32,000 bases of DNA from Promethearchaeum syntrophicum (GTDB taxonomy: Archaea; Asgardarchaeota; Lokiarchaeia; Sigyniarchaeales; Promethearchaeaceae), in NCBI RefSeq assembly GCF_008000775.2, contig NZ_CP042905.2, positions 390,001-422,000 of the forward strand. Direction: 5' to 3'. The notes under the pieces were generated by a model. That model was not told where the DNA came from. It searched no databases and saw nothing but the letters and a program-made list of their open reading frames with translations. Below are positions 2,877 to 26,800 of the stretch, in pieces; within the stretch, counting starts at the first letter, position 1; every line of letters starts with the position of its first letter. A program made the translations under genes and the position numbers.

Positions 2877-2920
2877 GCAACAAAATAAATATTAATTAGT
2901 AATTATTGAAATTTTTTATT

Positions 2921-3176
2921 ATGAACGAAAAGTATTTTGAAGCAAATTTAAAAAAATGGGATGAAGTTGTTGACATCCATGCCAAATCGAAATTTTATGA
3001 TTTGGAAGGATTTAAATCAGGAAAAACATCCTTATTTCCAACCTTATTTCCATCCATATGGATTTTTCGCAAAACATCCAGATATGAAAAAAGATAATGA
3101 TGGCTTTTGGCGTTTTAATACATTAAAACAAGAAATACCTTTGATGTTTTCAATTAAAGCAAGAAAACCAGAATGA
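2921..3176 (+). pseudogene. Internally deleted relic of a class I SAM-dependent methyltransferase
   Basis: Frame 1 (2921-3097) gives MNEKYFEANLKKWDEVVDIHAKSKFYDLEGFKSGKTSL, a typical N-terminus of a widespread methyltransferase family. Frame 2 ends ...FHPYGFFAKHPDMKKDNDGFWRFNTLKQEIPLMFSIKARKPE (to 3176), a typical C-terminus of the same family. The whole SAM-binding core between them is absent and the two parts are out of frame. Confidence 0.6.
3030..3052 (+). repeat. Tandem direct duplication ccttatttcca-a-ccttatttcca (period 12 nt) at the junction of the methyltransferase relic
   Basis: Read directly: 3030-3040 equals 3042-3052 (11/11 nt), separated by a single A. Confidence 0.9.
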
Positions 3177-3196
3177 AATTTTTATTTATTCTCTAA

Positions 3197-4723
3197 TTAT
3201 TTACTTTCTTCAATTTCTACAACATCAAGTTCCACACATAGCATAGGATTACCAAAAATTTTTGAAAGAGAAGGATTGGTTCTTCCATTATCTCCATGAA
3301 TCATTTCTTTAATATACATTCCCCCTTGACTATTAATTTTGAAAAAACCATGTCGTGAATCCACATATTTGCCTGTAATTGAATGAATCTTCTTTTTTCT
3401 AGTTTTATCAGAACGTCTATGAACAACTCTTAGAGGAGTTCGTTGATTAATGATCTTGTCATTTAATATCTCTTCAGCTTTTTGTAAATTTTCTTTAAAT
3501 TCATTTTTAGAGATAGGTTGTGCGAAATATACTAGAGCATTGTAATTTTTCCTTAAATATTCAGAGGATCTTTTAATTTCTATAATATCTTTTTTAGTGG
3601 CAGATATAAGTGAGTCCACAAATATTTTAGTTTTATTATTTTTATTTATATTTTGAGCAACTTCTGTTAACTCTACTTTTCTAATTTTTGGATTCCTAAT
3701 TTCAATTATAAATGAACGCCCAGATCCTATACAGCGAGCATCAATATCTTCTCTACCCGCTCCATGAAAAAGCGCTTCTTCACCTTTGGTTACCTTTACA
3801 AATTCGTTTCCAATTAAATCTTGAATTGAACTTGGATATCTATCACCAGTTCCTCCGCATTCGGTACAAATTTTCTTAGTAAATTTATTAAATCCTTTAC
3901 CATGGCATTCAAAACAATGCCAATGAGTTTGGGGTAAATCTCTTACCCATTTTTTATATCGACCTTTAAAATATAACGGAAGTGACCTAAGATTGAAATC
4001 CATTTTTCCTTTTAATTCTAAATTAATCGTTATCATTAGTCCTGGTTGCTCATATTTTGGTTGTTTTTTCCATAGGTCCTGTAATTCTTTACCAATCAAG
4101 CGATTTAAATTCGCTTTAAACGATTCGCCATTTTTCAAATTAAATTTTGCTCGTAATTCGTCTTCTTTATCAGCCTGGACTGCATTCAAATGAGTTCCTA
4201 TTAAAAAATCAGAAAAATCATATTCACGTGTCTTAAAATTAATTGAATTACAAATTTCGCTTATATTCTTTGGCATTAGAATATTTTCACATAATTGACA
4301 ATTAAATTCCGTCGTTCCTGAAGAATTTGATAATGTTGAGAATATAAATTCTTTATCTTTGAATTGGTCGATAATTTTCCTAGCTGGAATGAAATTAGTT
4401 CTTCTAGCTAATAAGTCCAAAATTTCAATTGGATTTTGGTTATAAAACATAAACCTTTCTTGAAAAGTTGTTTTTGATAGTAACAAATGGCATTCCATTG
4501 TAATTCCTAATAATATTGCATGAGCGCGCTCAAAATTTGAAGTAGCTGTCCCTAAATATGAAAATTGACGTCCAAGGCATTCATTACATAAACAATTATA
4601 TTTGAGAAGATCGATTGTTTTCTGATAGATACTTGGAGAAAGATTTGTATAATTGATTTGAATTTCTTCTTCTTTCAGATCCTCAGATTGGGATTCTTCA
4701 TGGCTGATAGGACGATTTTCCAC
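3197..4723 (-). CDS. pus10: tRNA pseudouridine(54/55) synthase Pus10
   Basis: It has the N-terminal zinc motif CLCNECLGRQFSYLG plus CQLCEN. The catalytic-core motif is GAGREDIDARCIGSGRSFIIEI. Further Pus10-type motifs are RTPLRVVHRRSDKTRKK and YIKEMIHGDNGRTNPSLS. The only available start is the GTG at 4723. Confidence 0.85.
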   Translation of the reverse strand: MENRPISHEESQSEDLKEEEIQINYTNLSPSIYQKTIDLLKYNCLCNECLGRQFSYLGTATSNFERAHAILLGITMECHLLLSKTTFQERFMFYNQNPIEILDLLARRTNFIPARKIIDQFKDKEFIFSTLSNSSGTTEFNCQLCENILMPKNISEICNSINFKTREYDFSDFLIGTHLNAVQADKEDELRAKFNLKNGESFKANLNRLIGKELQDLWKKQPKYEQPGLMITINLELKGKMDFNLRSLPLYFKGRYKKWVRDLPQTHWHCFECHGKGFNKFTKKICTECGGTGDRYPSSIQDLIGNEFVKVTKGEEALFHGAGREDIDARCIGSGRSFIIEIRNPKIRKVELTEVAQNINKNNKTKIFVDSLISATKKDIIEIKRSSEYLRKNYNALVYFAQPISKNEFKENLQKAEEILNDKIINQRTPLRVVHRRSDKTRKKKIHSITGKYVDSRHGFFKINSQGGMYIKEMIHGDNGRTNPSLSKIFGNPMLCVELDVVEIEESK

Positions 4724-4802
4724 ATCTAAATAAATGAAAATGATTGGAAAAAATTTGCGTTTTCGATATAAAGTTAAAAATAATCATTACTAATGGAATA
4801 TT

Positions 4803-5543
4803 ATGCTAACAAGCGAAGAATTGGAAAGGTATCAACGACAAATCCTAATTATAGGAAAAAATGGTCAAGAATTACTCAAACAAAAAAAAGTGCTCCAAGT
4901 GGGCTTAGGAGGCCTGGGATCTCCCCTCTCTTTATATCTTGTATCATCGGGAATTGGTGAATTAATTGTTTTTGAAAATGATGCTCTCTCATTATCCAAT
5001 TTAGGTCGACAAATTCTCTATAATACAGAGGATGTTAATATGTCCAAAGGAGGCCTCGCTAAATCTGTTCTTTCAAAATTGAATCCAAATATAAAAATTA
5101 CAATTATTAATGAACGTTTTACAATGCAAAGTGCTGAAAAATGTCTTAAAAACGCGAAAATTGACTATCTAGTTGACGCTTCTGATAATTTTGAGACTAA
5201 ATTTCTTATTAACGATATCGGTCTAAAATACAATATCCCCTTTACTATTGCTGGAATTCAAGGATTTGATGGACAACTAATTTCGGTAAATCCTCATGAA
5301 ACCGCTTGTTATCGATGTATTTTTGGTGATATGCCAAAGAATGATAAATTAAAACCAATCCCTGTTATGTCTCCAACTTGTGGTGTAGTGGGCTCTCTTG
5401 AAGCAAACGAAGTTATCAAAGGTCTTTTAAAAAGAGGAAAAAGGATAACTGATAACTTATTAATGATTAGTCTCGATTTAGGGGATTTTACACTTATTCC
5501 GATTAAGAAAAATCCCAACTGTGAATGTCAACTTAAGAACTGA
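4803..5543 (+). CDS. E1-like adenylyltransferase of the ThiF/MoeB/UbaA family
   Basis: It has the nucleotide loop VGLGGLGSPL, followed by LGRQILY and DASDNFETKFLINDI. A Cys pair CYRC and a C-terminal CEC are present. The PTCGVVGS loop is present. At 246 aa it is a compact prokaryotic E1. Confidence 0.85.
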   Translation: MLTSEELERYQRQILIIGKNGQELLKQKKVLQVGLGGLGSPLSLYLVSSGIGELIVFENDALSLSNLGRQILYNTEDVNMSKGGLAKSVLSKLNPNIKITIINERFTMQSAEKCLKNAKIDYLVDASDNFETKFLINDIGLKYNIPFTIAGIQGFDGQLISVNPHETACYRCIFGDMPKNDKLKPIPVMSPTCGVVGSLEANEVIKGLLKRGKRITDNLLMISLDLGDFTLIPIKKNPNCECQLKN

Positions 5544-5545
5544 TA

Positions 5546-5848
5546 CTAATCTTTGTCGCTGGAAAACGGTTCTTTTAATATTTTCTCATCCATTTTAATA
5601 TCTGTTTCATTATCTACATCATCAGGGTATAATTTTTTTAATTTGTCAAGATCAGCAAAATTTCCACCATTTTCATTTGACTCAATTTCAAGATAAAAGG
5701 CACCTTCATAATCGCAATCTCGACAGCGATAAATTTCAGTTACTGCCCACCCCATGTTTCTCGCTCTATATAATGATGGTTTTTCACATTTGGGGCATAT
5801 TTTAATAGAAAAAGTTTTTTTCTTTCTTAATTTCTTCCAAAACGGCAT
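5546..5848 (-). CDS. Small zinc-ribbon protein with an acidic C-terminal tail
   Basis: It has a CPKC...CRDC four-Cys ribbon after a basic N-terminus (KKLRKKK), and a tail rich in D/E/K. The start is an ATG. It is convergent with the E1-like gene, with 2 nt between the stops. Confidence 0.6.
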   Translation of the reverse strand: MPFWKKLRKKKTFSIKICPKCEKPSLYRARNMGWAVTEIYRCRDCDYEGAFYLEIESNENGGNFADLDKLKKLYPDDVDNETDIKMDEKILKEPFSSDKD

Positions 5849-5924
5849 ATTAAATTCATTAAACTTTCTTTACCAAAAAAATTTCCTACCAAAAAGATTT
5901 AAGTTTTTAAATAAAAAATTAAAT

Positions 5925-8612
5925 GTGACTGAAATTCAATCTCTTCTGAAACAATTAGATAGCGAAGAAACAAGGCTTCTTACAATTAAGAGGTTAGGAA
6001 TGGTTTATGATCCTAACTTAGTAGATCACCTCGTAAAATATCTTTTGGATAAAAATGGTAAGATCCGAGAAGCAACAATTTTTGCATTGAGCGCTTTGGG
6101 AGAAGTAGATACTATTATAGATCCAATAATTAATTGTTTAGGGGATGAAGTAAAAGAAGTACAAATTGCTGCAATAAAGACTCTTGGTGAATTTCGTTCA
6201 ATTAGGGGAACAAAACCATTAATTAAAATGTTAAATAACTCAGATAATGATGTTAGAGCTGCAACTGTAGTTGCACTTGGTTTGATTGAGGATAAAAATA
6301 GTCTATTTCCATTGATAGATGCTCTGGAAGATAAAGATGAAGAAGTAAAGATTAATGCTATAATGGCATTGGGTCAAATTGGTGATCAACGCGCAATAGA
6401 TCCAATTATTGAATGCTTAAAAGGAAGTTTTCCAGTACAACAAATGGCAATTCTAACTTTAGGAAAATTTGGTGATAAAAAGATCATTTCTCCTCTCAAA
6501 AAACTTTTATCTTCCCCAAATCCAAAAATCAGACAATATGCGATCATGTCTCTAGGATCTTTAAAAAATTCTAAGATTATAGAATATGCTATAAGGCTTC
6601 TAGATGATGAAGATCCCTCTGTACAACGCGCTGCAGCATCATCATTAATGGGATTACATGATCAACAAATTGTAACATCATTTATAGATCGCTTGAAGGA
6701 CTCTAATCCTGAAATCCGTCAAACTGCTTGTAAGGCATTGGGGAATCTGAAGGATGAGTCTGCAGTTATGGGTTTAATTGAAACTTTAAAAGATATTGAA
6801 CCAGAAGTTCGGGAACAGGCTGCTCACTCTTTAGGGATATTGGGAGATACTTCAGCAACAAAGCCTCTTATTAGCCAACTTAAAAAAGACAATGATCCCA
6901 AAGTACGTGCAACAATTGCATTGGCCCTAGGTAAAATAGAAGGACAAGCATCTCATGGGGGATTATCTAAAAAATTTAGTGTTTCCTCCGCAATAAGACC
7001 ATTATCAAAAGCTTTATCTGATCCAGATTTAAAAGTTCGAGCCAATTCAGCAGAATCATTAGCAAAGATTTCAATTTCAGGAGGCTCGTTCAAAAAAGCA
7101 CAATCTTATTATGAAAAAGCAGCAGCAGAGTCATTAACTTGGGATTATCATCAAAGTATTTATCAAGCATGTGCAATTGGTTGTGGATTAATTGAATCGA
7201 TTTCAAAAGGAATATACAAAGACTACGTTGCAGAATTTGATTTAATATATGAGAATTTAGAATTATCTGCAAAAATGATTGGAAATCAAACATTTCTATC
7301 TTATAATTATTGGAAATTACTGCAAGTATTTAATTCAATCTTTCTAAGCAAAACTAAGGAGCAATTCATCCAATATTATAGAGATTTTGGATTGCAATTA
7401 CTACTATTAGCTAAGAAATTACCAGAAGAGAGTAGAGAAATATTAAATGAATCTCAAGATAAATTAAATGAAAAATTTACTATGATTGATAAACGAGGGC
7501 TACCTCTAGAGCAATCCATTGCAGAAATGGAAAAATTGAAAGAAGAGGTAAATGAGATTGCAAATAAAATATTGCAACTGGAACCATTAGAATTACGCAT
7601 GGAGGAAAAAACGAAGAAATCGGTCAAAGCGATTGAAAGCTTAATTTCCACAGTTGATGATATAGTTAGTGATAGTGAACCTACATTGAATGATAGTCCT
7701 ATTACAATTAGAATTACATCAAAAAAAGAACGGAATTTTAATTTAGAAGAAGTCGATTTTGGAACCAGTATATCGCTAGATCATAATAAACCCACTCCCA
7801 TAGCTTTAATACAATTACAAAAAGGGATTAAAAGAGAAAGTTATGTTCAGGAACCAAGAGATTTATGGGAGAAATCCGTACAAAGATATTACGATTATAA
7901 TATTTATCGCCATTCAAGAATTCTCCAATTTACAAAAGAATCAATTCAGATGCGTGCTAAACCTAAAATTATTGGATATCTTGATGATATGATATATGAA
8001 AGTAAAAAATTAGTAATTTTTCCTGAAAATTCTGTTCCATATTCTTATTTGGATAAATTACAGCAGTTTGCAGATCGATTTAATTTCTTCATAATTGCAG
8101 GAATCGAAACTATGGCTGAAAAAGGTTCATATTTTAATCGTGCTTATCTTATTGGGCCATTATTAGAAAGATTTTCATTTCAACAAAAAAATTCTCAAAC
8201 GGTTCTACCTCCCTCAGAGAAAAGCATTAGTGAATGGAGGGAAAATATCGAACCAACTATTCCACCTGTTTTTAAAATATTCAATTCCCCTTTTGGGAAA
8301 TTTTTGATTCTGATAGGTCAAGATATTGTTGAAAATTTGCAGTATTTACCATTTATTTTCCGTGAAAAAAGTTTGGATTTTGCGATATTATTAAACAATG
8401 GATATTTACATGATTCAACTCTAAAAGACATCCAAAATCTGGCAAATGAGACAAAGAAACCAATATTTCTTGTAAATACTGGTCAATTTGGTGGAACCGG
8501 TATTTATTTACCCAACCAAACAATGGATTCATTATTGCAGAATGAATTCACTGAAGGTATTGCTTCATATGAATTAGAAATACCTGAAGAAGAAGATCTA
8601 GAGTTATTATAA
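5925..8612 (+). CDS. HEAT-repeat protein with a central helical/coiled-coil region and a C-terminal carbon-nitrogen-hydrolase-like domain lacking the catalytic Cys
   Basis: It has at least 11 tandem ~31-aa HEAT/PBS-lyase-type repeats (D..VR..A..ALG..GD). The C-terminal ~270 aa follow CN-hydrolase topology (IALIQ, LVIFPE, FFIIAG..YFNRAYLIGP..FQQKN, FLILIGQD, FAILLNN, IFLVNTGQFGGTGIYLP). The start is uncertain. The ATG at 5754 overlaps the divergent gene by 95 nt, so I prefer the GTG at 5925; the ATG at 6000 is the alternative. Confidence 0.8.
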   Translation: MTEIQSLLKQLDSEETRLLTIKRLGMVYDPNLVDHLVKYLLDKNGKIREATIFALSALGEVDTIIDPIINCLGDEVKEVQIAAIKTLGEFRSIRGTKPLIKMLNNSDNDVRAATVVALGLIEDKNSLFPLIDALEDKDEEVKINAIMALGQIGDQRAIDPIIECLKGSFPVQQMAILTLGKFGDKKIISPLKKLLSSPNPKIRQYAIMSLGSLKNSKIIEYAIRLLDDEDPSVQRAAASSLMGLHDQQIVTSFIDRLKDSNPEIRQTACKALGNLKDESAVMGLIETLKDIEPEVREQAAHSLGILGDTSATKPLISQLKKDNDPKVRATIALALGKIEGQASHGGLSKKFSVSSAIRPLSKALSDPDLKVRANSAESLAKISISGGSFKKAQSYYEKAAAESLTWDYHQSIYQACAIGCGLIESISKGIYKDYVAEFDLIYENLELSAKMIGNQTFLSYNYWKLLQVFNSIFLSKTKEQFIQYYRDFGLQLLLLAKKLPEESREILNESQDKLNEKFTMIDKRGLPLEQSIAEMEKLKEEVNEIANKILQLEPLELRMEEKTKKSVKAIESLISTVDDIVSDSEPTLNDSPITIRITSKKERNFNLEEVDFGTSISLDHNKPTPIALIQLQKGIKRESYVQEPRDLWEKSVQRYYDYNIYRHSRILQFTKESIQMRAKPKIIGYLDDMIYESKKLVIFPENSVPYSYLDKLQQFADRFNFFIIAGIETMAEKGSYFNRAYLIGPLLERFSFQQKNSQTVLPPSEKSISEWRENIEPTIPPVFKIFNSPFGKFLILIGQDIVENLQYLPFIFREKSLDFAILLNNGYLHDSTLKDIQNLANETKKPIFLVNTGQFGGTGIYLPNQTMDSLLQNEFTEGIASYELEIPEEEDLELL
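6048..7085 (+). repeat. Intragenic array of at least 11 HEAT/PBS-lyase-like repeats (about 93 nt each, diverged at DNA level)
   Basis: The protein-level periodicity is visible in units such as NSDNDVRAATVVALGLIED, DKDEEVKINAIMALGQIGD, DSNPEIRQTACKALGNLKD, DIEPEVREQAAHSLGILGD and DNDPKVRATIALALGKIEG. Confidence 0.8.
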
Positions 8613-13755: not shown

Positions 13756-14895
13756 ATGAATCTATTTGAAAGAACAAAAATAATTTTAGAAAAACATGAT
13801 ATTGATGGTTGGTTAGTAATGAGTAGTGAAGGAAATGATATTCACGCACAATATTTATTAGATGTTGAAGCTCACATAATGCATTTCATATATATATCTC
13901 GAAATGAAAAAGATCATGTTGTTTCATGCGTAATGGAAGCACCTATGATCAAAAAATCTTTGGAACGGCAAGGAATTGAAGCAGAAGTATCTACATACAA
14001 ATCTTTCAAAGATATTGGATCAATTCTTGCAAAACTATTAAAAGATAAGAAAATTGCGCTAAATTTTGGAGAAGATGTATTATCTTCTAGTGGAACAGGA
14101 TATGCTGAATTCCTTCCAGTTGGATTATATAATGCTTTACTGAAATATTCACCAACTACAAAATTTGTATCTGCAGCTCCGATAATCTATGAATTACGGA
14201 GTGTGAAATCCCCTGAAGAAATTGAAGATTTAAAGCATGCAACAAAAGCCACCATTGAAATTTTGGAAGATATCCCAAATTGGGTAAAAATTGGGATGAC
14301 TGAAAAAGAAATCAAAGCCAAACTTGAATATGAATATCTGAAAATTGGGACTCTTTCATTTCCTGCAATTGTTGCAAATAATGAACATGCTGCCGATCCC
14401 CATCATAACTGTTCGGATAAAAAAGTGGAAAAAGGGGTCTTATTAATTGATTCTGGAGTAAAAACCCGTCGAATATGCTCAGACATTACTTGGACATATT
14501 GGGTGGGAGGAAACCCTCCGGAAGATTTCCTTCAAGCCTATGATGCATTATATTATTCTAAAAAAGTATCATATAAATATATTAAAGCGGGAGCACCAGC
14601 AAATATGCCCGCAATTAAATGTCGTGAAGCGTTGCAAGAACGCGGCTACGATACAGATAAATTATATTTCCATGGTCTTGCTCATCCAATAGGATTTGTG
14701 GTGCACGATATCGGACCAGGAATGAGTATGAAAACAGATCCAAGCCGCTTACTCGTTGAAAACATGGTCTATTCAAATGAACCTGGACTATATTGGGAAA
14801 ATAAATGGGGAATTCGTCTGGAAGACGATTTGGTGGTAGGAAAAGATGGGGCTATTGTTGTTTCTTATAATCCGAAGAATCCCCTCCTAATTTAA
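13756..14895 (+). CDS. M24-family metallopeptidase (Xaa-Pro aminopeptidase/dipeptidase type)
   Basis: It has the pita-bread-fold metal ligands in canonical order: LLIDSG...CSDITWTY (D, D), HGLAHPIGFVVHD (H), SNEPGLY (E), GIRLEDDLVV (E). The track start at 13738 is a TTG, so I use the ATG at 13756 (MNLFERTK). Confidence 0.85.
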   Translation: MNLFERTKIILEKHDIDGWLVMSSEGNDIHAQYLLDVEAHIMHFIYISRNEKDHVVSCVMEAPMIKKSLERQGIEAEVSTYKSFKDIGSILAKLLKDKKIALNFGEDVLSSSGTGYAEFLPVGLYNALLKYSPTTKFVSAAPIIYELRSVKSPEEIEDLKHATKATIEILEDIPNWVKIGMTEKEIKAKLEYEYLKIGTLSFPAIVANNEHAADPHHNCSDKKVEKGVLLIDSGVKTRRICSDITWTYWVGGNPPEDFLQAYDALYYSKKVSYKYIKAGAPANMPAIKCREALQERGYDTDKLYFHGLAHPIGFVVHDIGPGMSMKTDPSRLLVENMVYSNEPGLYWENKWGIRLEDDLVVGKDGAIVVSYNPKNPLLI

Positions 14896-15196
14896 TCAGA
14901 TTTTTATATTCTTCAATAATTAGATTAAATTTTTTAATATCTTCTTCATTTTTTGTATTTTTAATTAATTCCATTGTTAAATTTATTTTTTTATTTAAAA
15001 ATTCTTTAATATTCTCTTGATTTATATTATCAATCTCTAAAACTTCCAAAATTTCATAATATATTTTTGATTTTAATAAATATTCATCATACATTTGTTT
15101 AGATAAGTGAGATATTAAATTTGGATTATAATCTTCAAGTTGGCTTTCATTTTTTATTTTCAAATCGGTAATATAAAAAGAATCTCGAATATTCAT
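14852..15196 (-). CDS. Hypothetical helical protein, 114 aa
   Basis: It has an ATG start and an E/K/N/I/L-rich, helix-prone sequence with no recognisable motif. Its 3' end overlaps the convergent peptidase gene by 44 nt. It is on the same strand as, and 55 nt downstream of, the longin-V4R gene. Confidence 0.4.
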   Translation of the reverse strand: MNIRDSFYITDLKIKNESQLEDYNPNLISHLSKQMYDEYLLKSKIYYEILEVLEIDNINQENIKEFLNKKINLTMELIKNTKNEEDIKKFNLIIEEYKNLIKLGGDSSDYKKQQ

Positions 15197-15251: not shown

Positions 15252-16049
15252 TTAAGTTAAATTTACCTTAAATCTGCATTGTTCATCCCCATGAGCAATG
15301 CATTGCGTTTCTTTTATTTGAATTGAATCTAAACTTATGCTTTTTTTTATATAGCCTTCAATAAAACCTTCAAGAAATTTACATGAAAACTCAGACGATT
15401 TTATACCACGGCATATAGGACACATGGGGATATCTATTTGTATTTCTTGTTCGTTTGAACTTGACACATTATTTATTGAAAATAAATTAAGTTCCTTTCG
15501 GATATGCTTCTTAAGTGATTTGAACGAAGAAACACTCGCTGCTCGTGCTAAACCTGTTTCTTCTCCAATAAGTTTAAGATATTTGGGTTCAAACTTGGAT
15601 TGAAATTTCCTAATTACTCGTATCACATGTTTTGGGAAATCTTTTTCAATAAATAATTTTGAAAAATCACCATATACGATTTCATCAATTTTCTTCCTAA
15701 ATCCTTCAAATATTGAAATTTTACCCTTCCAATTTTCAATCTCTTGGGAATAATCTTCTAAAAAACTTTCTCTAATTTTTTTAAGCGAACTTCCAATGAT
15801 TTCACTATGAGGATCCTCTTCAACCAATCCAACAAAAATTAATTTTTTATAAGAAGTAATGAACACACGTAATTCTCCAGTCTGAAAATATTTTATATCT
15901 CCAATTTCCAATTCTGAAGTAAACATGGAAAGAGCTGAAATTAATCCTGAGAAAAGGTTTCCATTTATCTCATATTTTTTTTTGGTAAAGGAATGTCTTA
16001 ATAACAGCAAAGATGACCCTTCTTGGATAATAAAAATCTCGAGTAGCAT
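15252..16049 (-). CDS. Longin/roadblock-like N-domain fused to a V4R (Bet3/TRAPP-like) C-domain
   Basis: The C-terminus carries the V4R signature CPICRG...CKFLEGFIEGYI...IKETQCIAHGDEQCRFKV, preceded by LIGEETGLARAAS helices. The N-terminal ~100 aa (LLEIFIIQEGSSLLLLRHSF..NLFSGLISALSMFTSEL..IKYFQTGELRVFITSYKKLIFVGLVEED) follow the longin/Bet5 pattern. The track start at 16058 is a GTG, so I use the ATG at 16049. Confidence 0.75.
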   Translation of the reverse strand: MLLEIFIIQEGSSLLLLRHSFTKKKYEINGNLFSGLISALSMFTSELEIGDIKYFQTGELRVFITSYKKLIFVGLVEEDPHSEIIGSSLKKIRESFLEDYSQEIENWKGKISIFEGFRKKIDEIVYGDFSKLFIEKDFPKHVIRVIRKFQSKFEPKYLKLIGEETGLARAASVSSFKSLKKHIRKELNLFSINNVSSSNEQEIQIDIPMCPICRGIKSSEFSCKFLEGFIEGYIKKSISLDSIQIKETQCIAHGDEQCRFKVNLT

Positions 16050-16122
16050 AAAATTCACTTATTCCTTTACAAATTTATTAATTATAAATACATGTTAGAA
16101 ATTAATTTGATCTTTAAAAAAA

Positions 16123-16476
16123 TTATGAATCTGAGTTTTTACCGTCTTCTCCCATTAAGAATTTTGTGAATCTAAAAAGTATCATCAGTGAAATAGCAAA
16201 AAGTAATAGACCAACTATCTGAAAAATTACTAAAGTTAATTTATAAGGTTCATAGTTATCTATCCAATAAAATTCTGTAAAGAAATCCAACCCTGCAGAA
16301 AGAGTTCCAAGAACAATCCCGCTAATTAAAACCAAGAATCCTTTGGATGCAAATATTCTATTATTTTTCTTTGCATAAAATGCCATTAACAGTACAAATA
16401 GATACGCAAATAAAGCCAATCCTTCTAAAATTGCATCAAGAATATCGATGTCTTCAAGTGGGCTAAGAAATTGCAT
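16123..16476 (-). CDS. Small integral membrane protein (3 predicted TM), paralogue of the upstream gene
   Basis: It has three long hydrophobic segments. The track start at 16539 is a TTG inside the upstream gene. The ATG at 16476 (MQFLSPLEDIDILDAILEG...) leaves a 10-nt spacer after the upstream stop. The ATG at 16515 is an alternative. Confidence 0.55.
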   Translation of the reverse strand: MQFLSPLEDIDILDAILEGLALFAYLFVLLMAFYAKKNNRIFASKGFLVLISGIVLGTLSAGLDFFTEFYWIDNYEPYKLTLVIFQIVGLLLFAISLMILFRFTKFLMGEDGKNSDS

Positions 16477-16486
16477 AAGTTCCACT

Positions 16487-16852
16487 TTATTTTCCCTCCC
16501 AAATTTTAATACCATAAAGGGCGATTCTGTAAAATGCAAATCCTATGATAAACAATCCGATAAAGGCAAAAATTGCATCTAACATGTCGAATACTGAATA
16601 AGCGAGCGCAGTTTCACCATTGATTTTTTTTGTCACCCAAGTATCTAATAAATCAAAAATAAAATGAGCAGCAAATACCCCAAAACCAATAATCATTTCA
16701 TTAAAACCCTTGCGAGTTAATTTTGGGTAGTGAATTTTTAAATAAATAATAATAATTATTACAGATAAAGCAGCGATAGCCGTAATTAATTCAATAGTAA
16801 TTGTTCCTAATTCATCATTTAATCTCAATTGGTCTATTGAATCCCACTCCAT
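16487..16852 (-). CDS. Small integral membrane protein (3 predicted TM)
   Basis: It has an ATG start and three hydrophobic segments (ELITAIAALSVIIIIIYL, MIIGFGVFAAHFIFDLL, VFDMLDAIFAFIGLFIIGFAFY). No known motif is present. Confidence 0.6.
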   Translation of the reverse strand: MEWDSIDQLRLNDELGTITIELITAIAALSVIIIIIYLKIHYPKLTRKGFNEMIIGFGVFAAHFIFDLLDTWVTKKINGETALAYSVFDMLDAIFAFIGLFIIGFAFYRIALYGIKIWEGK

Positions 16853-16985
16853 ATCTAACTATCAACCTAAGGTAATAAATAATTATTGATTAGAAATAGA
16901 ATGAAGAAAAAATTTTTTGATAAAAAGTGGTCTCTTCATTTTTAATATATGATTGATTTTAATTTAGAATAATAGTGATTAAAGA

Positions 16986-19812: not shown

Positions 19813-19930
19813 ATCAAATTAATTCTAACATTGGAATTTAATTTTTTGAATTTTAAATTAAAAAAATATTGATGTTTTTTCATGTTATTGTATGAAAAAA
19901 TTGAAAAATTATCGTGTTTTTTTTTTTCCA

Positions 19931-21445
19931 ATGACTTCAAAATTTTTGCGATTCTTTTCACCTTTTACGCGCGTCACAACAGAAATTAGAAAACCAGATA
20001 GAGAAATCTCATTCAAAGATAAAATCATCTATACCCTTGTAATTCTTGTAATTTACATTATTATGTCGAATATTCCGATCTATGGTATTGCGACAGATGC
20101 TGGAAATGACATGTATTATTGGTTGAGAGTTATCTTAGCTTCTAAGCGTGGAACATTAACAGAGATGGGTATCGGTCCAATTGTAACCGCTGGTTTGATT
20201 ATGCAATTACTTCAAGGTTCAAAACTGATTAATGTAAACATGGGAGATCCAACAGATCGTGCATTATTTACTGGAGCGCAAAAAGTAATCGCCATTGGGT
20301 TAACTATTTTCCAAAGTATAGCCTATATTGAGGGTGGTGCCTTTGGAGAAATTGAATCAACTTTGTTTAAAATATTAGTTTTCCTTCAGCTATTCCTAGC
20401 TGGACAAGTAATTATTCTGTTAGATGAAGTCTTACAAAAAGGATACGGATTAGGTTCGGGTGTGTCCTTATTTATTGCCACAGGTGTGGCCGGACAAATA
20501 TTTTGGAATGCATTTTCTTTCTTTGATGTTACAGCTGAAGGAAGTGATTTTCTTCCACGTGGGATTATAATTGCATTCTTTGCAGTCTTGTTTGGATCAC
20601 ATCAATTCCCAGAAGGACATATACAAGCTGGTGATGAAATAGGAATTGGGGATTTATTTTTAAGAAATGCTGGAGCTCCAGGTCTTCTGGGTTTGCTGAC
20701 AACTATTTTAATATTTCTCGCAGTAATTTATGTCCAAACCATGCAAGTGGAAATTCCCCTAACTTATGCTGGGCACAAAGGTTATCGTGGAAAGTATCCG
20801 ATGAAATTATTATATGTTTCGAATATACCCGTCATACTTGCTCAAGCTTTATATGCTAACTTCTTATTTTTCGGACAAATTTTATGGAACGCTAAGGTGG
20901 AAAATGGTTGGGGAGATTGGATAAACCTTATCGGAGAATTCACACAAGCGACAGAAGGGGTAGATGCATCACATTTACAACCAGTTGGAGGCTTATTATA
21001 TCTAATAACTCCGCCTCAGGGGCTGTCCTATATTCTCGATCCGGCGAATGATCAAAGTCTAAGATTATTGCTTCTTCATAGCGTCGGATATCTACTTATT
21101 TTTATTACGATTTGTATTGTATTTGGTCGTATTTGGGTCGAGGTTTCAGGTTTGGCACCCCGTGATATCGCTGGTCAAATTATTAATTCGAAAATGCAAA
21201 TACCCGGTTTTAGACGTTCTGAAAAAGTAATTGAAAAAATTCTGAAAAGATATATACCGACGTTAACAATACTGTGTGGTATAATTGTTGGACTTTTATC
21301 ATTTACTGCGGACTTTCTTGGAGCTCTCTCTTCTGGAACAGGATTACTTTTATCAGTTGGGATCATCCAAAACTATGCTGAAACGATAGGAAAAGAAGCT
21401 GCCGCCGAATCAATGCCCGGTATGGGCGGATTACTCGGTATGTAG
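19931..21445 (+). CDS. secY: Preprotein translocase subunit SecY (Sec61alpha type)
   Basis: It has 10 TM segments. Characteristic stretches are ISFKDKIIYTLVILVIYIIMSNIPIYGI, RGTLTEMGIGPIVTAGLIMQLL, GSGVSLFIATGV and LLYVSNIPVILAQAL. The ATG at 19931 (MTSKFLRF) is preferred over the upstream track start at 19892. Confidence 0.93.
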   Translation: MTSKFLRFFSPFTRVTTEIRKPDREISFKDKIIYTLVILVIYIIMSNIPIYGIATDAGNDMYYWLRVILASKRGTLTEMGIGPIVTAGLIMQLLQGSKLINVNMGDPTDRALFTGAQKVIAIGLTIFQSIAYIEGGAFGEIESTLFKILVFLQLFLAGQVIILLDEVLQKGYGLGSGVSLFIATGVAGQIFWNAFSFFDVTAEGSDFLPRGIIIAFFAVLFGSHQFPEGHIQAGDEIGIGDLFLRNAGAPGLLGLLTTILIFLAVIYVQTMQVEIPLTYAGHKGYRGKYPMKLLYVSNIPVILAQALYANFLFFGQILWNAKVENGWGDWINLIGEFTQATEGVDASHLQPVGGLLYLITPPQGLSYILDPANDQSLRLLLLHSVGYLLIFITICIVFGRIWVEVSGLAPRDIAGQIINSKMQIPGFRRSEKVIEKILKRYIPTLTILCGIIVGLLSFTADFLGALSSGTGLLLSVGIIQNYAETIGKEAAAESMPGMGGLLGM

Positions 21446-21466
21446 AGAGATTTCAAAGGTTAATAT

Positions 21467-21489
21467 AAGGAATTTTTTACTCCTTTTTT
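21467..21489 (+). terminator. Weak hairpin (aagga/tcctt) flanked by two T6 runs downstream of secY
   Basis: The sequence is aagga-attttttac-tccttttttc, 20 nt after the secY TAG. The oligo-T runs fit archaeal termination. The stem is only 5 bp. Confidence 0.25.
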
Positions 21490-21593
21490 CATTAATTATA
21501 TATAAAAATCAAAGACAATTTTTTGGCAAGTTTCTTTCATAATTTATAAATTTCAGAAATTTTTTTTTAATCCCGTTATTATATTAATATATA

Positions 21594-22256
21594 ATGATAT
21601 TAGCTTGGGCAGATTTTATTACTTGGTTGACGACGCCTCCAGTTTCAATGTGGTTTATATTCGTTGTTAGCATTCTTGTTTCCTTGTTTTCAACCTTTCT
21701 CAATAAAGTTTTAGTTGATCATGATAAAATGAACAGACAACAAGATGTTATAAATGATCATAAGAAAAGAAAAAAAGAATTATTGCAATTATCGGAAGAT
21801 AATCCAAAAAGATATGCTAAAGAATATCCAAAGTGGCAACGAAGAGATCCCAGTATTAAAAATATGGAACAAAAGATGAGCTTACAGAGATTAAAACCAA
21901 GTTGTTTTACATTTCTACCAATGATTATATTCTTCTATGTAATTCGTAATATGTTTACTCCTGAAGGTTCTCCAATTCAATTTCCTGTTGCCAGTGGTTC
22001 AATGAATCCAATGCAAGAATTTCCGACTTTACTTACAACTATGCTACAATCTGAGATGTATTCAGTGTTAGGGAATATTGTTGTAGATCATGGTTTTATC
22101 GGTTTTACTGGTTGGTATATGTTATGTAGTTTCACGAATTCAACAATAATCAACAAATTACTTAAAGTTTCAAGACCTTCGGGAGGACAAGGTATGGGAT
22201 CAATGTTCGATTCTAAGGCTCAAGAAGATTTGCCGAATCCGAAATCACTACTTTGA
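21594..22256 (+). CDS. DUF106 / EMC3-TMCO1-Get1-like (archaeal YidC-like) membrane protein
   Basis: It has an N-terminal TM (WFIFVVSILVSLFSTFL), then a basic coiled-coil hairpin (VDHDKMNRQQDVINDHKKRKKELLQLSEDNPKRYAKEYPKWQRR), then further hydrophobic segments. It lies directly downstream of secY, as DUF106 genes do in many archaea. Confidence 0.7.
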   Translation: MILAWADFITWLTTPPVSMWFIFVVSILVSLFSTFLNKVLVDHDKMNRQQDVINDHKKRKKELLQLSEDNPKRYAKEYPKWQRRDPSIKNMEQKMSLQRLKPSCFTFLPMIIFFYVIRNMFTPEGSPIQFPVASGSMNPMQEFPTLLTTMLQSEMYSVLGNIVVDHGFIGFTGWYMLCSFTNSTIINKLLKVSRPSGGQGMGSMFDSKAQEDLPNPKSLL

Positions 22257-22878: not shown

Positions 22879-23850
22879 TCATTTCAAATTTGTTTCAAGT
22901 GATTTAACTTTTTTAAATATTGAATTTGTAACGTTAATATATAAATCCTTCATTATTTCTTCAAATTCCAGTGGTTTTTCTACATTTGGAGCTATCCCTA
23001 AAGTATCTAATATGTCAAAATGAACTCCTGGTTTTGAAAAAGAAAAGCCTATTTCGTATGGTTCCCCTGATAGAAAGTTCTTATGGGATAAATCATGAAA
23101 ATTTAAACTCGGAACATCAAATGCATCATCATACGAATGAATTTGCTCGCGAATTTTATGAGTAGATTGAACAATAGGCCTGTTTGCACAAGATCGCGCA
23201 AGTTGCAAATCGTGTAATAAATCATCTCTAGATTTTCCTCTAAGTTTTAGAAGTAAAAATGGATCCAAATCAAGAACTCTTGCAGTATATAATATTGTGG
23301 CGGCAATATGTTTGCAAGGAACTGCTTGATCAGGACAAGAACAGCTTGCATTTAGGGTTTTTGAAGCTGGAGGGAATAATTGATAACCTGTTTCCTTGAA
23401 GATTTGATGTAAATTATCGGGAATTTTATTTTCTAATAAAGCAATTATATATTTCACTTTTTTGGCAATTTTAAGGAGAATTTCGTTCCACCCCTCCTCA
23501 GGTATGGTTTTAAAATTTATTTTTACCCTATATGGAGTTGGTGCTGTGCCTTGGACTGTTCCAAAAATTTGACCAGGACTAACTGTTAGATTTTCGATAC
23601 GGTTTTCCTCTGCATACCGCATTCCTCTTTGCATTCTATAAGGTCTTCCGAATTTTAAAATTGATTCGATCCATTGAATTCCCCACTGTGTATGAGCAAA
23701 ATTCAATAGATCGTCCATAATTTGTTGAACTTCGTGCCTTTTTTGTTGCCTTTCTTGATAGTTTTTTGGTCTAGATCCTGATAGTTTTGGATCATTGTGG
23801 GAGTTCAAAGTTCTTTTTCGATAAGAACGAGCTGATGTTTTTTTTGCCAT
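22879..23850 (-). CDS. SWIM zinc-finger protein (partner of the upstream SNF2 helicase)
   Basis: The SWIM signature is CSCPDQAVPCKHIAATILY (CxCxnCxH). It is preceded by the family-typical RGMRYAEENRIENLTVSPGQIFGTVQGTAPTPYRVKI. The ATG at 23850 overlaps the SNF2 TGA by 1 nt (TGATG). The track start at 23853 is a TTG. Confidence 0.85.
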   Translation of the reverse strand: MAKKTSARSYRKRTLNSHNDPKLSGSRPKNYQERQQKRHEVQQIMDDLLNFAHTQWGIQWIESILKFGRPYRMQRGMRYAEENRIENLTVSPGQIFGTVQGTAPTPYRVKINFKTIPEEGWNEILLKIAKKVKYIIALLENKIPDNLHQIFKETGYQLFPPASKTLNASCSCPDQAVPCKHIAATILYTARVLDLDPFLLLKLRGKSRDDLLHDLQLARSCANRPIVQSTHKIREQIHSYDDAFDVPSLNFHDLSHKNFLSGEPYEIGFSFSKPGVHFDILDTLGIAPNVEKPLEFEEIMKDLYINVTNSIFKKVKSLETNLK

Positions 23851-26800
23851 CAATTAGTCAGTCCTGGTTCATTTAATAGGAATATTTCTCGCAATTCTTC
23901 AGTAGAAAGATCAGTAATCCAATTTTCTCCAGCCGAACTTAAAATTTTATCTGCAAGATTACGTTTTTCTTCAAGCATTTTGTCAATTCTCTCTTCGATA
24001 GTTCCAAGTGCTATGAATTTGTACACATTCACATTTTTCTCTTGCCCAATTCGATATGCCCGATCAGTTGCTTGGTCCTCAACTGCAGGATTCCACCATC
24101 TATCAAAATGAAATACTGTAGATGCTTGAGTTAAATTAAGTCCTGTTCCTCCGGCTTTCAGTGATAATATCAGTATCGGCGAACTATCCAAATCTTGAGA
24201 TTGAAATTCATCTACAAGTTCCCTACGTTTCTTTTCAGGAACTCCTCCATGAAACCAACCTATATTAAACAAATATTTCTTTTCAAGAAAGTATTTTAAT
24301 AGATCTCCCATTTGTTTGAATTGAGTAAATATCAAAATTTTTTCACCATCTTCTAATATTTCATTAACCATTTCAAGTAAGCGTTCAAATTTCACAGATG
24401 ATTTAATAAAATCATCAAAATTATAATTAGGTGTACTTTCAATTTTTGATGAATTTATGTGTAGAAATTGGTAAGGATGATTGCATATTTGTTTAGTTTG
24501 TGTTAGAAGACGTAAAACTAATCCTCTTCTCTTTGATTCGTGAAATTCTAAATTTTCTATCTCTTTTAATGTAGAATTTACAGTTCTTTTGTATAATTCT
24601 GATTGTTTTTCACTCAATTCTAAGAAAATCTTGATTTCATTCTTTTCAGGCAGATCTTGAATTATTTCTTTGTCAGTTTTTAACCTCCTTAGAATGAAAG
24701 GAGAAATTATGCGTTTCAGTTTATTACTTCCTTCTTCATTGTGAAATCGTTCGATTGGTAGGATAAAATTTTTATAGAAATTTGCCTGGGTACCGAGCAA
24801 ACCAGGATTTAAAAACTCAAATAAGGTCCAAAGTTCAATTAATCGATTTTCAATCGGTGTTCCAGTCATTGCTATACGGTACATGCTTTTTAATCGAAGA
24901 ATTGCTTTTGTTTGTTGTGCTTTATAATTTTTAATATTTTGAGACTCATCCAAGATCACTCCAGTAAATGGAATTGCTTCCAATACTTCAATTTCATTAC
25001 GAACTATCCCATAGGTTGTTAAAATAATTCGATTAGGTATTGTAAATTCTGATAAAGCTTCATTCTCATCTATTCTCTTCTTTCCATGATAGATTAAAAT
25101 ATCAAGAGACGGAGCAAATTTTTGAAGTTCGCGGTGCCAATTAAATAGGACTGATGTGGGACAAACAACAAGAACACTTCCGGTTGAAATTTCGTCGTAT
25201 TTTTCTTTTCGGTGAAGTAGAAACGAAATCACTTCAATAGTTTTTCCCAGTCCCATGTCATCCGCTAAACAAATGCCAAAGTTAAATTCTGTCATATTTG
25301 CCAACCAAACAAGCCCTATTTCTTGATAAGGTCTTAATTCTCCCTTAAATAAGGTTGGTGTTGTAATTTTTTGAAAAGAATCAATTTCAGAAAATTCTGT
25401 TATATATTTCTGGAAATTTCCCTCTAATATAACTTCATAAGTATTTTTAGCATCAGATAGTTGGATATTCTTAGTAATTCCTAAATTTATTGCCTCAGAA
25501 AGCGATAATGTTCCTTTAATTTTTTGTTTTTGTTCAAAAATTGGTCTTAAAGTATTCATATCTTCTTGATCTACTAATACCCATTGATCCCGCCAGAAAA
25601 TGAGTGGTTCCTTAATTTTGGCTAATTCAAGGAATTCTGATTCCGTTAATTTTTGATTTTCTAAGCGAGCTTCCCATTCGAATTCTAAAAATGAATTAAG
25701 ATCAAATAATTTGCTAATATTTCCCCCTGCAAATCCTGATTGTTTATTTTTTTGATTAGATTTTGAATCCCTAATTACCATTCTCGCACTTAAACGTTGT
25801 TGACCTTTAAGTCTGAATTGTTCTGGTAATACAACATTGAAACCAACCTGTCTTAAAAGATATTGTGAATATCTAAGAAGATCCATGACCTCTGTTATAT
25901 CGAGTTTTATCCTATTGGGGTTTTTGACTTCTAAAATTCTTTTTAATGGAGGAAAAAGTTTAACTGCTATTCCCAAAGCTCGTAATATTTCTTCTTGTAA
26001 TCCTTCTTCATCATCACAAACATTTGCAAATTCTTCTTTTTGTGTTACATTCCCATTCCAAACTTCACTTAATGAAATAAAATAATCTAAATCATGTAAC
26101 GGTTGAATATATATTCCTAATACCCAAGCAGATTTTGGAGATTTTGGGTATTCTAATCTAAATGTAAATAACACACCTAGTGCGAAAGAAAATCCTTGAG
26201 TTTGTTGAACCCAATTTTGCAGTATTCCCGGAATTGGAGTGTCGCAAAAACGAGTTATTTCAAAAATACGATTTTTGCCAATACAAGAATTAAGAAAACG
26301 TAAATCCCATGGATTTTTTTCCTCGAGATTACAAGCATTTCCTAATTGATCAAGATCCGAGTTGTATAAGTTTGTAAATTTCTTATGAAAATTTGTACTT
26401 AAAGAATCTCTAATTAAAAAATCTGAAACTTGATTCATATAGTTAGCGAATAAATAAGACGGATGCCAAACTCCTGTTGTTTTAACTCCATTTGGTTTCA
26501 TAGAAATAAAATTTATAGGTAAATTGTAGGAACTCCATGGAGCATTGTTAAGAATTTTTTGAAATCGTTTATGATCTAGTTGAGTTTTAAATATGACATT
26601 CCACATTCCTTCATAATGTTTTAAATCAATTTTTTTAAGCGTAGGGATAAAATTCCCTCTGCTGACTAATTCTAGGGTAAATTTAGTTAAAAAAGCCCAA
26701 GTTTTGATTGAATTTGAATAAGAAATAAAATTTTGACTTCTATCTTGAAGATTTACAATCTGAAGCGGAAAAAGAACGCGTATTGCAGGAGGAATTGGTA

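Follow-up and report, generated by a model that had tools for sequence, protein, structure and literature searches.

The locus described here raises the question of whether an Asgard archaeon joins, in a single polypeptide, the two folds that make up the core of the TRAPP complex and, if so, what such a protein might do. The gene concerned lies on the minus strand of a 32,000-nucleotide stretch of the Promethearchaeum syntrophicum genome (NZ_CP042905.2, positions 390,001 to 422,000), referred to below as the window, whose numbering is used throughout. The original prediction held that it encodes a TRAPPC1/Bet5-like longin domain followed by a V4R/Bet3-like domain. A longin-fold domain and a V4R/Bet3-superfamily domain are indeed combined in this one archaeal chain, as indicated by the topology of an AlphaFold2 (AF2) model, by Foldseek, and by the Pfam V4R family, and the gene is tightly linked to the genes of two small membrane proteins, TM-A and TM-B. 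The kinship with TRAPPC1 did not survive scrutiny. We tentatively read the three products as a membrane-docked sensor/adaptor module.

The longin–V4R fusion protein

Read from its GTG codon at 16058, the open reading frame 15252..16058 (minus strand) comprises 268 residues. Translation almost certainly starts at ATG 16049, and probably not at GTG 16058, because the sequence M1-L2-L3-E4 is invariant in 22 fusion orthologues (265–274 residues) and the database copies have 265 residues. The coding sequence is accordingly placed at 15255..16049, with the stop codon at 15252–15254, and residues are numbered from ATG 16049 (265-residue form) unless stated otherwise. The protein is 100% identical to QEE15089.1/WP_147662013.1 of P. 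syntrophicum MK-D1, which carries the public annotation “V4R domain-containing protein”; the adjoining TM partners are annotated as “hypothetical protein.” Thirty database proteins match the open reading frame, and the fusion is conserved over its full length, at 25–85% identity, in about 49 clusters. The AF2 model of the full chain, built from a 22-sequence alignment, reached a predicted local distance difference test (pLDDT) score of 83.5 and a predicted TM score (pTM) of 0.77, the latter suggesting a defined arrangement of the longin and V4R domains.

Could the two-domain protein be an artifact of gene calling or assembly, or could its halves resemble known domains merely by chance? The only point found in favor is that the N-terminal half of the window protein, taken alone, has no Pfam match above threshold. 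This explanation is refuted by the recurrence of the architecture, at 254–286 residues and with both halves conserved, in a complete genome and dozens of independent assemblies; the AF2 model, moreover, is confident over both halves.

The C-terminal half (residues 138–265; 15255..15638, minus strand) was assigned to V4R, which forms the prokaryotic branch of the Bet3/TRAPPC3 superfamily, from Pfam, NCBIfam, Foldseek, and paired glycine motifs. In the AF2 model, helices at residues 140–149, 155–169, 176–188, and 224–237 and strands at 194–199, 202–207, 243–249, and 258–264 follow one another as expected for the V4R/Bet3 fold with its four-stranded sheet. The Pfam V4R family (PF02830) matches the window protein with 34.3 bits against a cut-off of 31 (E = 2.5e-8) and matches all 43 full-length family members (best E = 4.9e-11); weaker matches to MetOD1 and ATC_hydrolase overlap it in the window protein. 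Among NCBIfam models, the top match of the C-half is the C-terminal V4R region of MsvR (E = 9e-9). Pfam TRAPP/Bet3 (PF04051) has no match in the window protein and matches 2 of the 43 members weakly (best E = 0.02). When the 43-sequence family profile was compared with all PDB sequences, MJ1460 (E = 0.0017), MopR (0.004), and PoxR (0.45) were found, and Bet3 and Thor-TRAPPC3 chains were not.

Comparison of structures yields a different picture. Foldseek matched the C-half of the AF2 model to TRAPPC3/Bet3 from Naegleria, human, mouse, and yeast, to Thor-TRAPPC3 (7yh3; TMt 0.61), to BcsD, to MJ1460 (2oso; E = 1.2e-4), and to H-NOX, with E values of 7e-6 to 1e-4, the lowest of which belong to TRAPPC3/Bet3, Thor-TRAPPC3 included. 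Bet3 and V4R have been united by a hallmark in helices α2 and α5, where two glycines stand three residues from each other (Podar et al. 2008). The fusion has such GxxxG pairs at G162/G166 (helix 155–169) and G228/G232 (helix 224–237); G162, G228, and G232 are invariant, and G166 is kept in at least 90% of family members. Thus, judged by its sequence, the C-half belongs with the prokaryotic sensor-type V4R domains (MsvR, MJ1460, and MopR) and not with Pfam TRAPP/Bet3, whereas its modeled fold is about equally close to Bet3/TRAPPC3 and to archaeal V4R.

The cysteine pattern noted in the original prediction is present in the order given there and reads, with exact spacings in place of what were schematic dots, C-x2-C-x-G-x7-C-x-F-x-EG-x3-G-x14-ET-x-C-x3-GD-x2-C-x-F. 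It contains a Cys/Glu cluster, C210-P-x-C213, C223, E247, C250, and C258 (15276..15422, minus strand), whose five cysteines and single glutamate are invariant in the 43 family sequences. C223, E247, C250, and C258 align residue for residue with C155, E178, C181, and C189 of MopR, which we take to be the Zn ligands of that protein. The spacing of C223, C250, and C258 (27 and 8) is close to that of C206, C232, and C240 of MsvR (26 and 8), which are the three conserved, redox-relevant cysteines of its V4R domain; mutation of C206 abolishes redox control in MsvR. From these alignments, the cluster is a probable Zn and/or redox site; in PoxR, MopR, and Thor-TRAPPC3, a metal site built on cysteines ties the sheet to a helix.

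The N-terminal half is predicted to be a longin. Its core (residues 1–110; 15720..16049, minus strand) was delimited from the AF2 topology, Foldseek, and Pfam matches in family members. The model shows β1 (2–9), β2 (14–20), α1 (30–46), β3 (54–57), β4 (60–67), β5 (70–77), and α2 (82–105), and then a helix at 112–134, that is, a β-β-α-β-β-β-α-α topology with a five-stranded sheet and a strand in first position, which is the longin order. Three sequence strings that had been singled out by eye as longin elements occur literally at residues 5, 34, and 55 of the 268-residue reading frame and correspond to β1–β2, α1, and β3–β5 of the model. The helix at 112–134 (15648..15716, minus strand), which lies between the domains, could count as longin α3 or as V4R/Bet3 α1. 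Longin structures align with 124–131 columns of the 137-residue N-terminal model and Bet3 structures with 156–173 columns, compared with the 128 residues of the fusion that lie beyond residue 137; judging from these alignment lengths, both the longin and the Bet3 matches seem to include the helix.

To which longins is this domain closest? A separate AlphaFold model of residues 1–137 (pLDDT 79.8) was searched against the PDB with Foldseek, and the best whole-domain matches were Sec22b (1ifq_A; TM 0.70/0.75 over 124 columns) and VAMP7 (4b93_A; 0.68), with AP-1 σ3 (9ddt_B; 0.66/0.73) and Fuzzy (7q3d_C; 0.63) also near the top. Longin-fold chains of TRAPP appeared lower, at rank 12 (TMq 0.49) and at ranks 41 and 43 (TMq about 0.60). 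The Foldseek match 3cue_A is a longin-fold TRAPP chain, Bet5 being chain C of 3CUE. With the full-length model, the N-half matched Mon1/Ccz1, Fuzzy/Inturned, and AP μ/σ, and no TRAPP longin was among the top 50 matches.

The only longin family of Pfam that matches the window protein is Fuz_longin_1 (E = 0.088, below the gathering cut-off). Across the 43 members, likewise below gathering cut-offs, Fuz_longin_1 matches 26 (best E = 3e-5), Longin 12 (best E = 2.7e-6), and Intu_longin_1 4. Sybindin (PF04099) and Sedlin_N (PF04628) have no match in the window protein and do not figure among the 25 families that the listing at E ≤ 1 gives for the 43 members; each thus matches at most one member. A search of 1.84 billion representative proteins with the N-domain profile returned 1,010 relatives at E ≤ 1e-3. 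Among the best 150 of these (E < 2e-8), the longin-type Pfam families were Fuz_longin_1 (36; best E = 1.5e-9), Longin (11), Sybindin (6), Intu_longin_1 (5), and Clat_adaptor_s (5), and the domains found in the same proteins included Ras/Arf/Roc (10), TrmB (7), Gtr1_RagA (6), V4R (only 4), and also TRASH. Direct profile alignment with hhalign gave a probability of 0.1% (E = 0.42) for TRAPPC1 and of 0.4% for Sec22b, using sequences of the two proteins that had been validated beforehand against 2j3t_C and 3egd_C. Neither the N-domain profile nor the whole-family profile retrieved a longin, TRAPP, or roadblock chain from among all PDB sequences.

Taken together, these data retain one part of what had been proposed for the N-half and remove another. 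Topology and Foldseek mark it as a genuine longin, a member of a large Asgard longin family. Foldseek, Pfam, and hhalign reveal no preference for TRAPP longins, which rank 12th to 43rd with TM values of 0.49–0.61; the best matches are Sec22b, VAMP7, AP σ, and Mon1/Fuzzy, and the Pfam affinities are to Fuz_longin_1 and Longin instead of Sybindin or Sedlin, so the TRAPPC1/Bet5-like assignment has to be given up. The alignment centered on “FQT” that had suggested it was not recovered by hhalign and is not a sequence signal; the resemblance reflects equivalent strands of a common fold rather than detectable homology to the TRAPP subfamily.

Two other assignments of the N-half were considered and rejected. 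A roadblock/LC7/MglB fold, with its α-β-β-α-β-β-β order, does not agree with a domain that begins with a strand at residue 2 and has no N-terminal helix. Roadblock, LAMTOR, MglB, and Rag C-terminal structures match only 77–110 columns of the N-terminal model (TMq 0.36–0.57 for roadblock, LAMTOR, and MglB), and Robl_LC7 is neither matched by the window protein nor among the 25 Pfam families listed for the 43 members. The second candidate was a GTPase-activating protein (GAP)-type longin of the FLCN/SMCR8/NPRL2 class. Such longins are marked by a GP motif in the β1–β2 loop (Traffic 2025, PMC12290439); none of the 43 members has GP within the first 25 residues, and their β1–β2 loop reads QEGSS or variants of it.

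A conserved cassette with two membrane proteins

The fusion gene is the last of three closely spaced genes on the minus strand. TM-A (16490..16852, stop codon 16487–16489; DSAG12_00914) encodes a protein of 121 residues with three transmembrane (TM) segments, and its paralogue TM-B (16126..16485, stop codon 16123–16125) encodes another three-TM protein of about 117–120 residues, depending on whether it starts at GTG 16485 or ATG 16476. A GGAGG sequence at 16495–16499, within the 3′ end of TM-A, precedes the TM-B GTG by 9 nucleotides. Upstream of TM-A lies an AT-rich intergenic region (16853..16985, minus strand), which separates it from a divergent DUF4097 gene and presumably holds the cassette promoter; scans for bacterial promoters and terminators have no meaning in an archaeal genome.

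TM-A, TM-B, and the fusion are adjacent and on one strand in each of the 15 distinct loci whose flanks are intact (16 sequences; L001–L009, L014, L015, L018, L019, L020, and L022), with fusion identities down to about 25%. When all open reading frames of each locus were scanned with hidden Markov models, every locus with intact flanks proved to have the fusion, TM-A, and TM-B exactly once. In nine genome loci, the two membrane-protein genes stand beside the fusion in every case, and other neighbors are kept only within a genus. The cassette also occurs in a distant locus with 27% identity (L014), in a metagenome-assembled genome (MAG) labeled Hod (L019), and in four Helarchaeota-type contexts (L015/L016, L018, L020, and L022). 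The order is TM-A, TM-B, fusion in Loki-type loci and fusion, TM-A, TM-B in Helarchaeota-type loci; since linkage is kept despite this difference, adjacency has survived rearrangement. Junctions are tight, TM-A and TM-B abutting or overlapping by 1–4 nucleotides and the fusion following after 9–80 nucleotides. The TM-A family comprises 66 clusters, compared with 49 for the fusion, over the same taxonomic range, and its locus tags are consecutive with those of the fusion.

TM-A and TM-B align collinearly over 101 columns (hhalign probability 96.3%, E = 1.8e-9), each with three hydrophobic segments; Helarchaeota-type TM-B has an N-terminal extension with roughly two further hydrophobic segments. 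Searches of Pfam and of PDB sequences gave no credible match for either protein. Invariant residues are E21, G49, G56, H63, D67, D70, T71, D89, D92, L100, G114, and W118 in TM-A and, counted from the ATG, D14, E18, G46, G57, D64, E68, and K79 in TM-B, and the acidic and His residues among them lie in or near the TM segments. In orthologues of both proteins, the N-terminal tail is acidic and loop 1 is rich in Lys and Arg. By the positive-inside rule, we infer a topology in which the N terminus is outside and loop 1 inside, which would turn the acidic/His cluster outward and leave the conserved “KGF” loop and the C-terminal tail in the cytoplasm. A dual-topology (antiparallel) TM-A/TM-B pair was rejected, since the charge bias runs in the same direction in both paralogues.

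The fusion family is fairly small and confined to a single lineage. When one genome per GTDB species was scanned with a sequence pattern, nine full-length fusion loci emerged, all in Promethearchaeota (Promethearchaeum spp., Lokiarchaeum ossiferum, Harpocratesius repetitus, and MAGs). Extending the search by profile to distant members brought this to 49 clusters at 90% identity, which are of Loki type (40–85% identity), from one MAG labeled Hodarchaeota, or of Helarchaeota type (25–30% identity). Neither search returned a euryarchaeal member, which disposes of the concern that the fusion might be a widespread euryarchaeal V4R architecture: the survey places it in Loki- and Hel-type Asgard archaea only. 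Both cultured species of the Loki class, P. syntrophicum and L. ossiferum, have it.

Some observations on individual loci belong here. The L015/L016 contig (P0039, HUY01133.1) is labeled “Candidatus Deferrimicrobium sp.,” a bacterium, and contains FTR, HTH_10, and Arf/Ras GTPase genes in addition to the Asgard cassette; it is probably a mis-binned archaeal contig, because it carries archaeal genes whose nearest relatives are Helarchaeota proteins. At positions 4001–4381 of L021 (P0265, a Promethearchaeota MAG), upstream of a gene for an HxlR-type regulator, there is a lone and divergent gene resembling TM-A (E = 1e-25 against the TM-A profile). In the window, a Lys/Glu-rich open reading frame of 114 residues (14852–15196, minus strand) without a Pfam match lies directly downstream of the fusion and overlaps the 3′ end of a convergent M24 peptidase gene by about 44 nucleotides. 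It is kept (68–75% identity) only in three loci of the genus Promethearchaeum and falls outside the conserved cassette.

Small GTPases occur near the cassette in some Helarchaeota. In L018 and L022, Ras-type GTPase genes lie directly upstream of it on the same strand, with an Arf-like GTPase gene on the opposite strand, and L018 encodes, in addition, a longin that stands alone and is homologous to that of the fusion (E = 4e-12). In L015/L016, a Ras gene lies some 3 kb from the cassette. In other proteins, among the best 150 relatives, the longin family of the fusion is joined to Ras, Arf, or Rag GTPases. We regard the GTPase linkage, seen in Helarchaeota only, as a hint and not as a conserved feature. 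The Helarchaeota regions just before the cassette (L018 1826–4901 and L022 2270–4024) consist of a run of genes for small proteins and Ras-type GTPases on the same strand; in L018, these are a possible winged-helix protein (131 residues), the stand-alone longin related to the fusion N-domain (143 residues), a 319-residue protein with an unassigned 180-residue N-terminal region and a Ras domain, and a Ras-like GTPase of 229 residues; the GTPase genes of L018 beside the cassette occupy 2855–3814 and 4212–4901. On the opposite strand, this region carries an HTH_5 regulator gene next to that of the Arf-like GTPase.

Possible roles of the module

We favor the view that the fusion and TM-A/TM-B constitute a membrane-docked sensor/adaptor module, with a probability of roughly 0.4. 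The fusion would be the soluble product of the three genes, a cytoplasmic protein in which the longin is packed rigidly against the V4R domain. Within the cell membrane, TM-A and TM-B would pair as a parallel heterodimer; their invariant Glu, His, and Asp residues would point toward the outer face and make up a cation- or ligand-binding site, and their basic KGF loop and C-terminal tail would dock the longin–V4R protein in the cytoplasm. The V4R half would be the sensing element, with either a hydrophobic pocket for small molecules or a Zn-thiolate/redox switch as in MsvR, PoxR, and MopR, a role we propose because V4R domains are known ligand and redox sensors and because the Cys pattern matches those of MopR and MsvR. 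The longin half would act as a protein–protein platform that probably dimerizes and most plausibly presents to an Asgard small GTPase.

Several points weigh against this view. Contact between the fusion and the membrane pair is deduced from gene linkage, and the topology of TM-A/TM-B from the positive-inside rule only. As the pair has no known relatives in Pfam or the PDB, it could be an anchor, a sensor, or a transporter. The Zn site may be purely structural, as was argued for Thor-TRAPPC3 by Tran, Akil, Senju & Robinson (2024, Commun Biol 7:273). Searches with three Asgard GTPase sequences (tblastn) detected no small GTPase in the 32-kb window, nor any within about 6 kb of the cassette in a Loki-type locus. 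L018 and L022 are syntenic over a larger region and so are not independent observations. Small GTPases are very abundant in Asgard genomes, and some adjacency is therefore expected by chance. Finally, no fusion or TM-B gene is found near the TM-A-like gene of L021, which means that this membrane-protein family is not always tied to the fusion.

The same parts could be put together differently. If TM-A and TM-B, with six TM segments between them, moved or bound a metal or another cation, they would be a small transporter or channel, gated by a Cys-rich V4R subunit that senses the metal or redox state of the cytoplasm; the longin would then only dimerize or dock, and no GTPase would be needed. 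The invariant charged residues in the TM segments of both paralogues, with the motifs H-x3-D and D-x3-E, would suit such a device, as would the match of the invariant Cys5/Glu cluster to Zn-binding or redox-sensitive V4R sites, the strict three-gene linkage without any conserved GTPase, and the MetOD1 and MsvR-type similarity, which puts the C-half among regulatory V4R domains. We nonetheless think a transporter unlikely, as TM-A and TM-B resemble no transporter family or structure in Pfam or among PDB sequences, and their charged residues would, given the topology above, cluster near one face without forming a path across the membrane, an arrangement better suited to binding than to transport. 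To our knowledge, longins serve as protein–protein or GTPase platforms in every context known, which also counts against this scheme. A lipid-handling module, in which the V4R/Bet3-like pocket binds a membrane lipid or isoprenoid that TM-A/TM-B hand over or receive, would serve membrane remodeling or lipid transfer instead of signaling. Precedents are the binding of palmitate by Bet3 and of phenols by PoxR and the internal cavities of Thor-TRAPPC3; ligand binding or transport has been proposed for Asgard TRAPPC3/V4R proteins (Tran et al. 2024). The strict association with membrane proteins and the elaborate membrane protrusions of both cultured Loki species would also be in keeping with it. 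This scheme, however, gives no role to the invariant Cys cluster or the longin, and TM-A/TM-B are unlike any lipid scramblase or transporter in Pfam or among PDB sequences; we see only a slim chance that it is right.

The reading closest to the original prediction, in which a covalent longin–Bet3 pair was taken for a minimal TRAPP-core-like unit, would make the fusion a guanine nucleotide exchange factor (GEF). Two copies would form a homodimer ordered Bet3-longin-longin-Bet3, like the TRAPPC3-C1-C4-C3 tetramer at the center of TRAPP, and act on an Asgard Rab/Arf-like GTPase, with TM-A/TM-B as membrane receptor. In its full form, the three genes would encode a pre-eukaryotic, membrane-anchored GTPase-regulating machine, in which that homodimer sits on a TM-A/TM-B receptor sensing an external cation or ligand and switches the GTPase; if this were true, it would offer an ancestor-like working model of the way in which membranes first came to recruit the longin and Bet3 folds. 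In favor of the exchange factor, one chain contains both fold types of the TRAPP core, the top structural matches of the C-half by Foldseek E value are TRAPPC3/Bet3 proteins including Thor-TRAPPC3, a homodimer has been predicted for a Heimdall longin–TRAPPC3 fusion (Tran et al. 2024), and in two Helarchaeota genomes the cassette comes directly after Ras-type GTPase genes. Even so, the longin shows no TRAPP preference in fold ranking, Pfam, or hhalign against TRAPPC1, and its best family affinity, to Fuz/Mon1 LD1, points to the tri-longin GEFs as much as to TRAPP. The sequence of the C-half is V4R/MsvR-like, with weak Pfam TRAPP matches in 2 of 43 members, and no GTPase is linked in Loki-type genomes or the window. 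We consider both the exchange factor and the machine built around it quite improbable, and the likeness to a minimal TRAPP core is best kept, in weakened form, as an architectural analogy.

The remaining window and comparison with known systems

The remaining genes of the window are of housekeeping type, and the window holds no tRNAs or Rfam matches. The segment 1192–5543 encodes a Prok-JAB deubiquitinase-like protein (1192–1875), a TtuA-like PP-loop 2-thiouridine synthetase (1872–2876), Pus10 (3197–4723), and a ThiF/E1-like protein (4803–5543), which looks like a ubiquitin-like sulfur-carrier and tRNA-thiolation set. A HEAT-repeat protein of 952 residues (5754–8612, plus strand) matches Adaptin_N with 43.8 bits against a cut-off of 37 (E = 1.8e-11), besides HEAT models, and may represent an adaptin- or importin-like solenoid of Asgard archaea. 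At a distance of about 4 kb from the cassette, SecY (19892–21445) is followed by an EMC3/TMCO1-like (Oxa1-superfamily) insertase gene (21594–22256), the two spanning 19892–22256 on the plus strand. On the minus strand at 22879–27098, the gene of a SWIM zinc-finger protein (324 residues) lies directly downstream of that of a 1082-residue SNF2-family helicase with DUF3670, overlapping it by 4 nucleotides, and the pair looks conserved. The segment 27099–28273, between the SNF2 gene and a Lys-rich open reading frame of 406 residues (no Pfam match), is poor in open reading frames and very AT-rich (GC about 0.26–0.28), with neither an Rfam match nor a tRNA.

The longin–V4R architecture has one published precedent, and the Loki/Hel family, its 5-Cys MsvR-like V4R subtype, and its pairing with membrane proteins have not been described. 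Literature searches by accession, by locus tags, and by the L. ossiferum orthologue gave no mention of the fusion, and among the papers retrieved only Tran et al. (2024) combines V4R, longin, and Asgard. That study solved structures of Thor-TRAPPC3, modeled the MK-D1 V4R/TRAPPC3 proteins WP_147663132.1 and WP_147661794.1 and one “TRAPPC1-like” MK-D1 longin, and noted that in MK-D1 the genes of GTPases do not as a rule share operons with those of roadblock, longin, or TRAPPC3 proteins; neither WP_147662013.1 nor the Loki/Hel fusion family is named in its text or supplement. A 2026 review refers to this study when stating that dimers are formed by Asgard longin and TRAPPC3 proteins. The precedent is the Heimdall protein MBD3190748.1, for which AF2 predicted a homodimer (Tran et al. 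2024, Fig. 9g and Suppl. Fig. 10g). Like the fusion described here, it comes from an Asgard archaeon and has an N-terminal longin, a C-terminal domain of TRAPPC3/V4R fold, and a Cys-based Zn site, in the fusion a probable one. It is, however, a single example from a Heimdall-labeled MAG, about whose adjacent membrane-protein genes Tran et al. are silent, and it is not among the fusion family members listed.

Eukaryotic trafficking GEFs are built in part from longin and Bet3/V4R folds, both of which the fusion joins in one chain; the linked membrane pair would be the first concrete, testable route by which such a longin–V4R protein is brought to a membrane. Should the analogy with TRAPP fail, two new families of membrane proteins would still be defined by the cassette, and the longin would still be a new output partner of V4R sensor domains. 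It overturns nothing, but it offers an experimentally tractable handle, available in the two cultured Loki species, on the way longin and Bet3-like folds come into contact with membranes in Asgard archaea.

Among known systems, the prokaryotic V4R sensors MsvR, PoxR/MopR/DmpR, and MJ1460 are the nearest sequence relatives of the C-half, which has its Cys/Glu positions in common with MopR and a Cys spacing like that of the redox-relevant cysteines of MsvR. In those proteins, V4R either occurs by itself or accompanies DNA-binding or AAA+ output domains, whereas the fusion has a longin attached, no DNA-binding domain, and membrane proteins as genomic partners. Ragulator/LAMTOR and MglB-type platforms offer an analogy of function only: there, as proposed for the fusion, a small α/β platform held at the membrane by an anchor positions a small GTPase. 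They are roadblock folds with a lipidated anchor subunit, in contrast to a longin with two integral membrane proteins and an unproven link to a GTPase. The tri-longin GEFs (Mon1-Ccz1, Fuzzy-Inturned, and HPS1-HPS4) are linked to the fusion by the profile of their first longin (Fuz_longin_1/Intu_longin_1), the commonest profile affinity of its N-half, at scores below the gathering cut-off, and Mon1, Ccz1, and Fuzzy chains are among the top Foldseek matches of the full model; they have three longins where the fusion has one, and the heterodimeric GEF assembly is theirs.

The eukaryotic TRAPP core, finally, in which TRAPPC3/Bet3 is combined with TRAPPC1/Bet5 and TRAPPC4/Trs23 (2J3T and 3CUE), likewise brings together a Bet3-superfamily fold, with GxxxG pairs in two helices, and a longin. 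The module is architecturally analogous to this Bet3–longin pair; by descent, its longin is not of TRAPPC1/C4 type, and it is not a demonstrated TRAPP. TRAPP is made of separate subunits, whereas the fusion is one chain whose longin is not of Sybindin/Sedlin type by profile or fold ranking. The C-half of the fusion keeps the residues of the prokaryotic Cys/Zn site that was lost in Bet3 (Tran et al. 2024), and its genomic partners are two small integral membrane proteins, of a kind that TRAPP is without.

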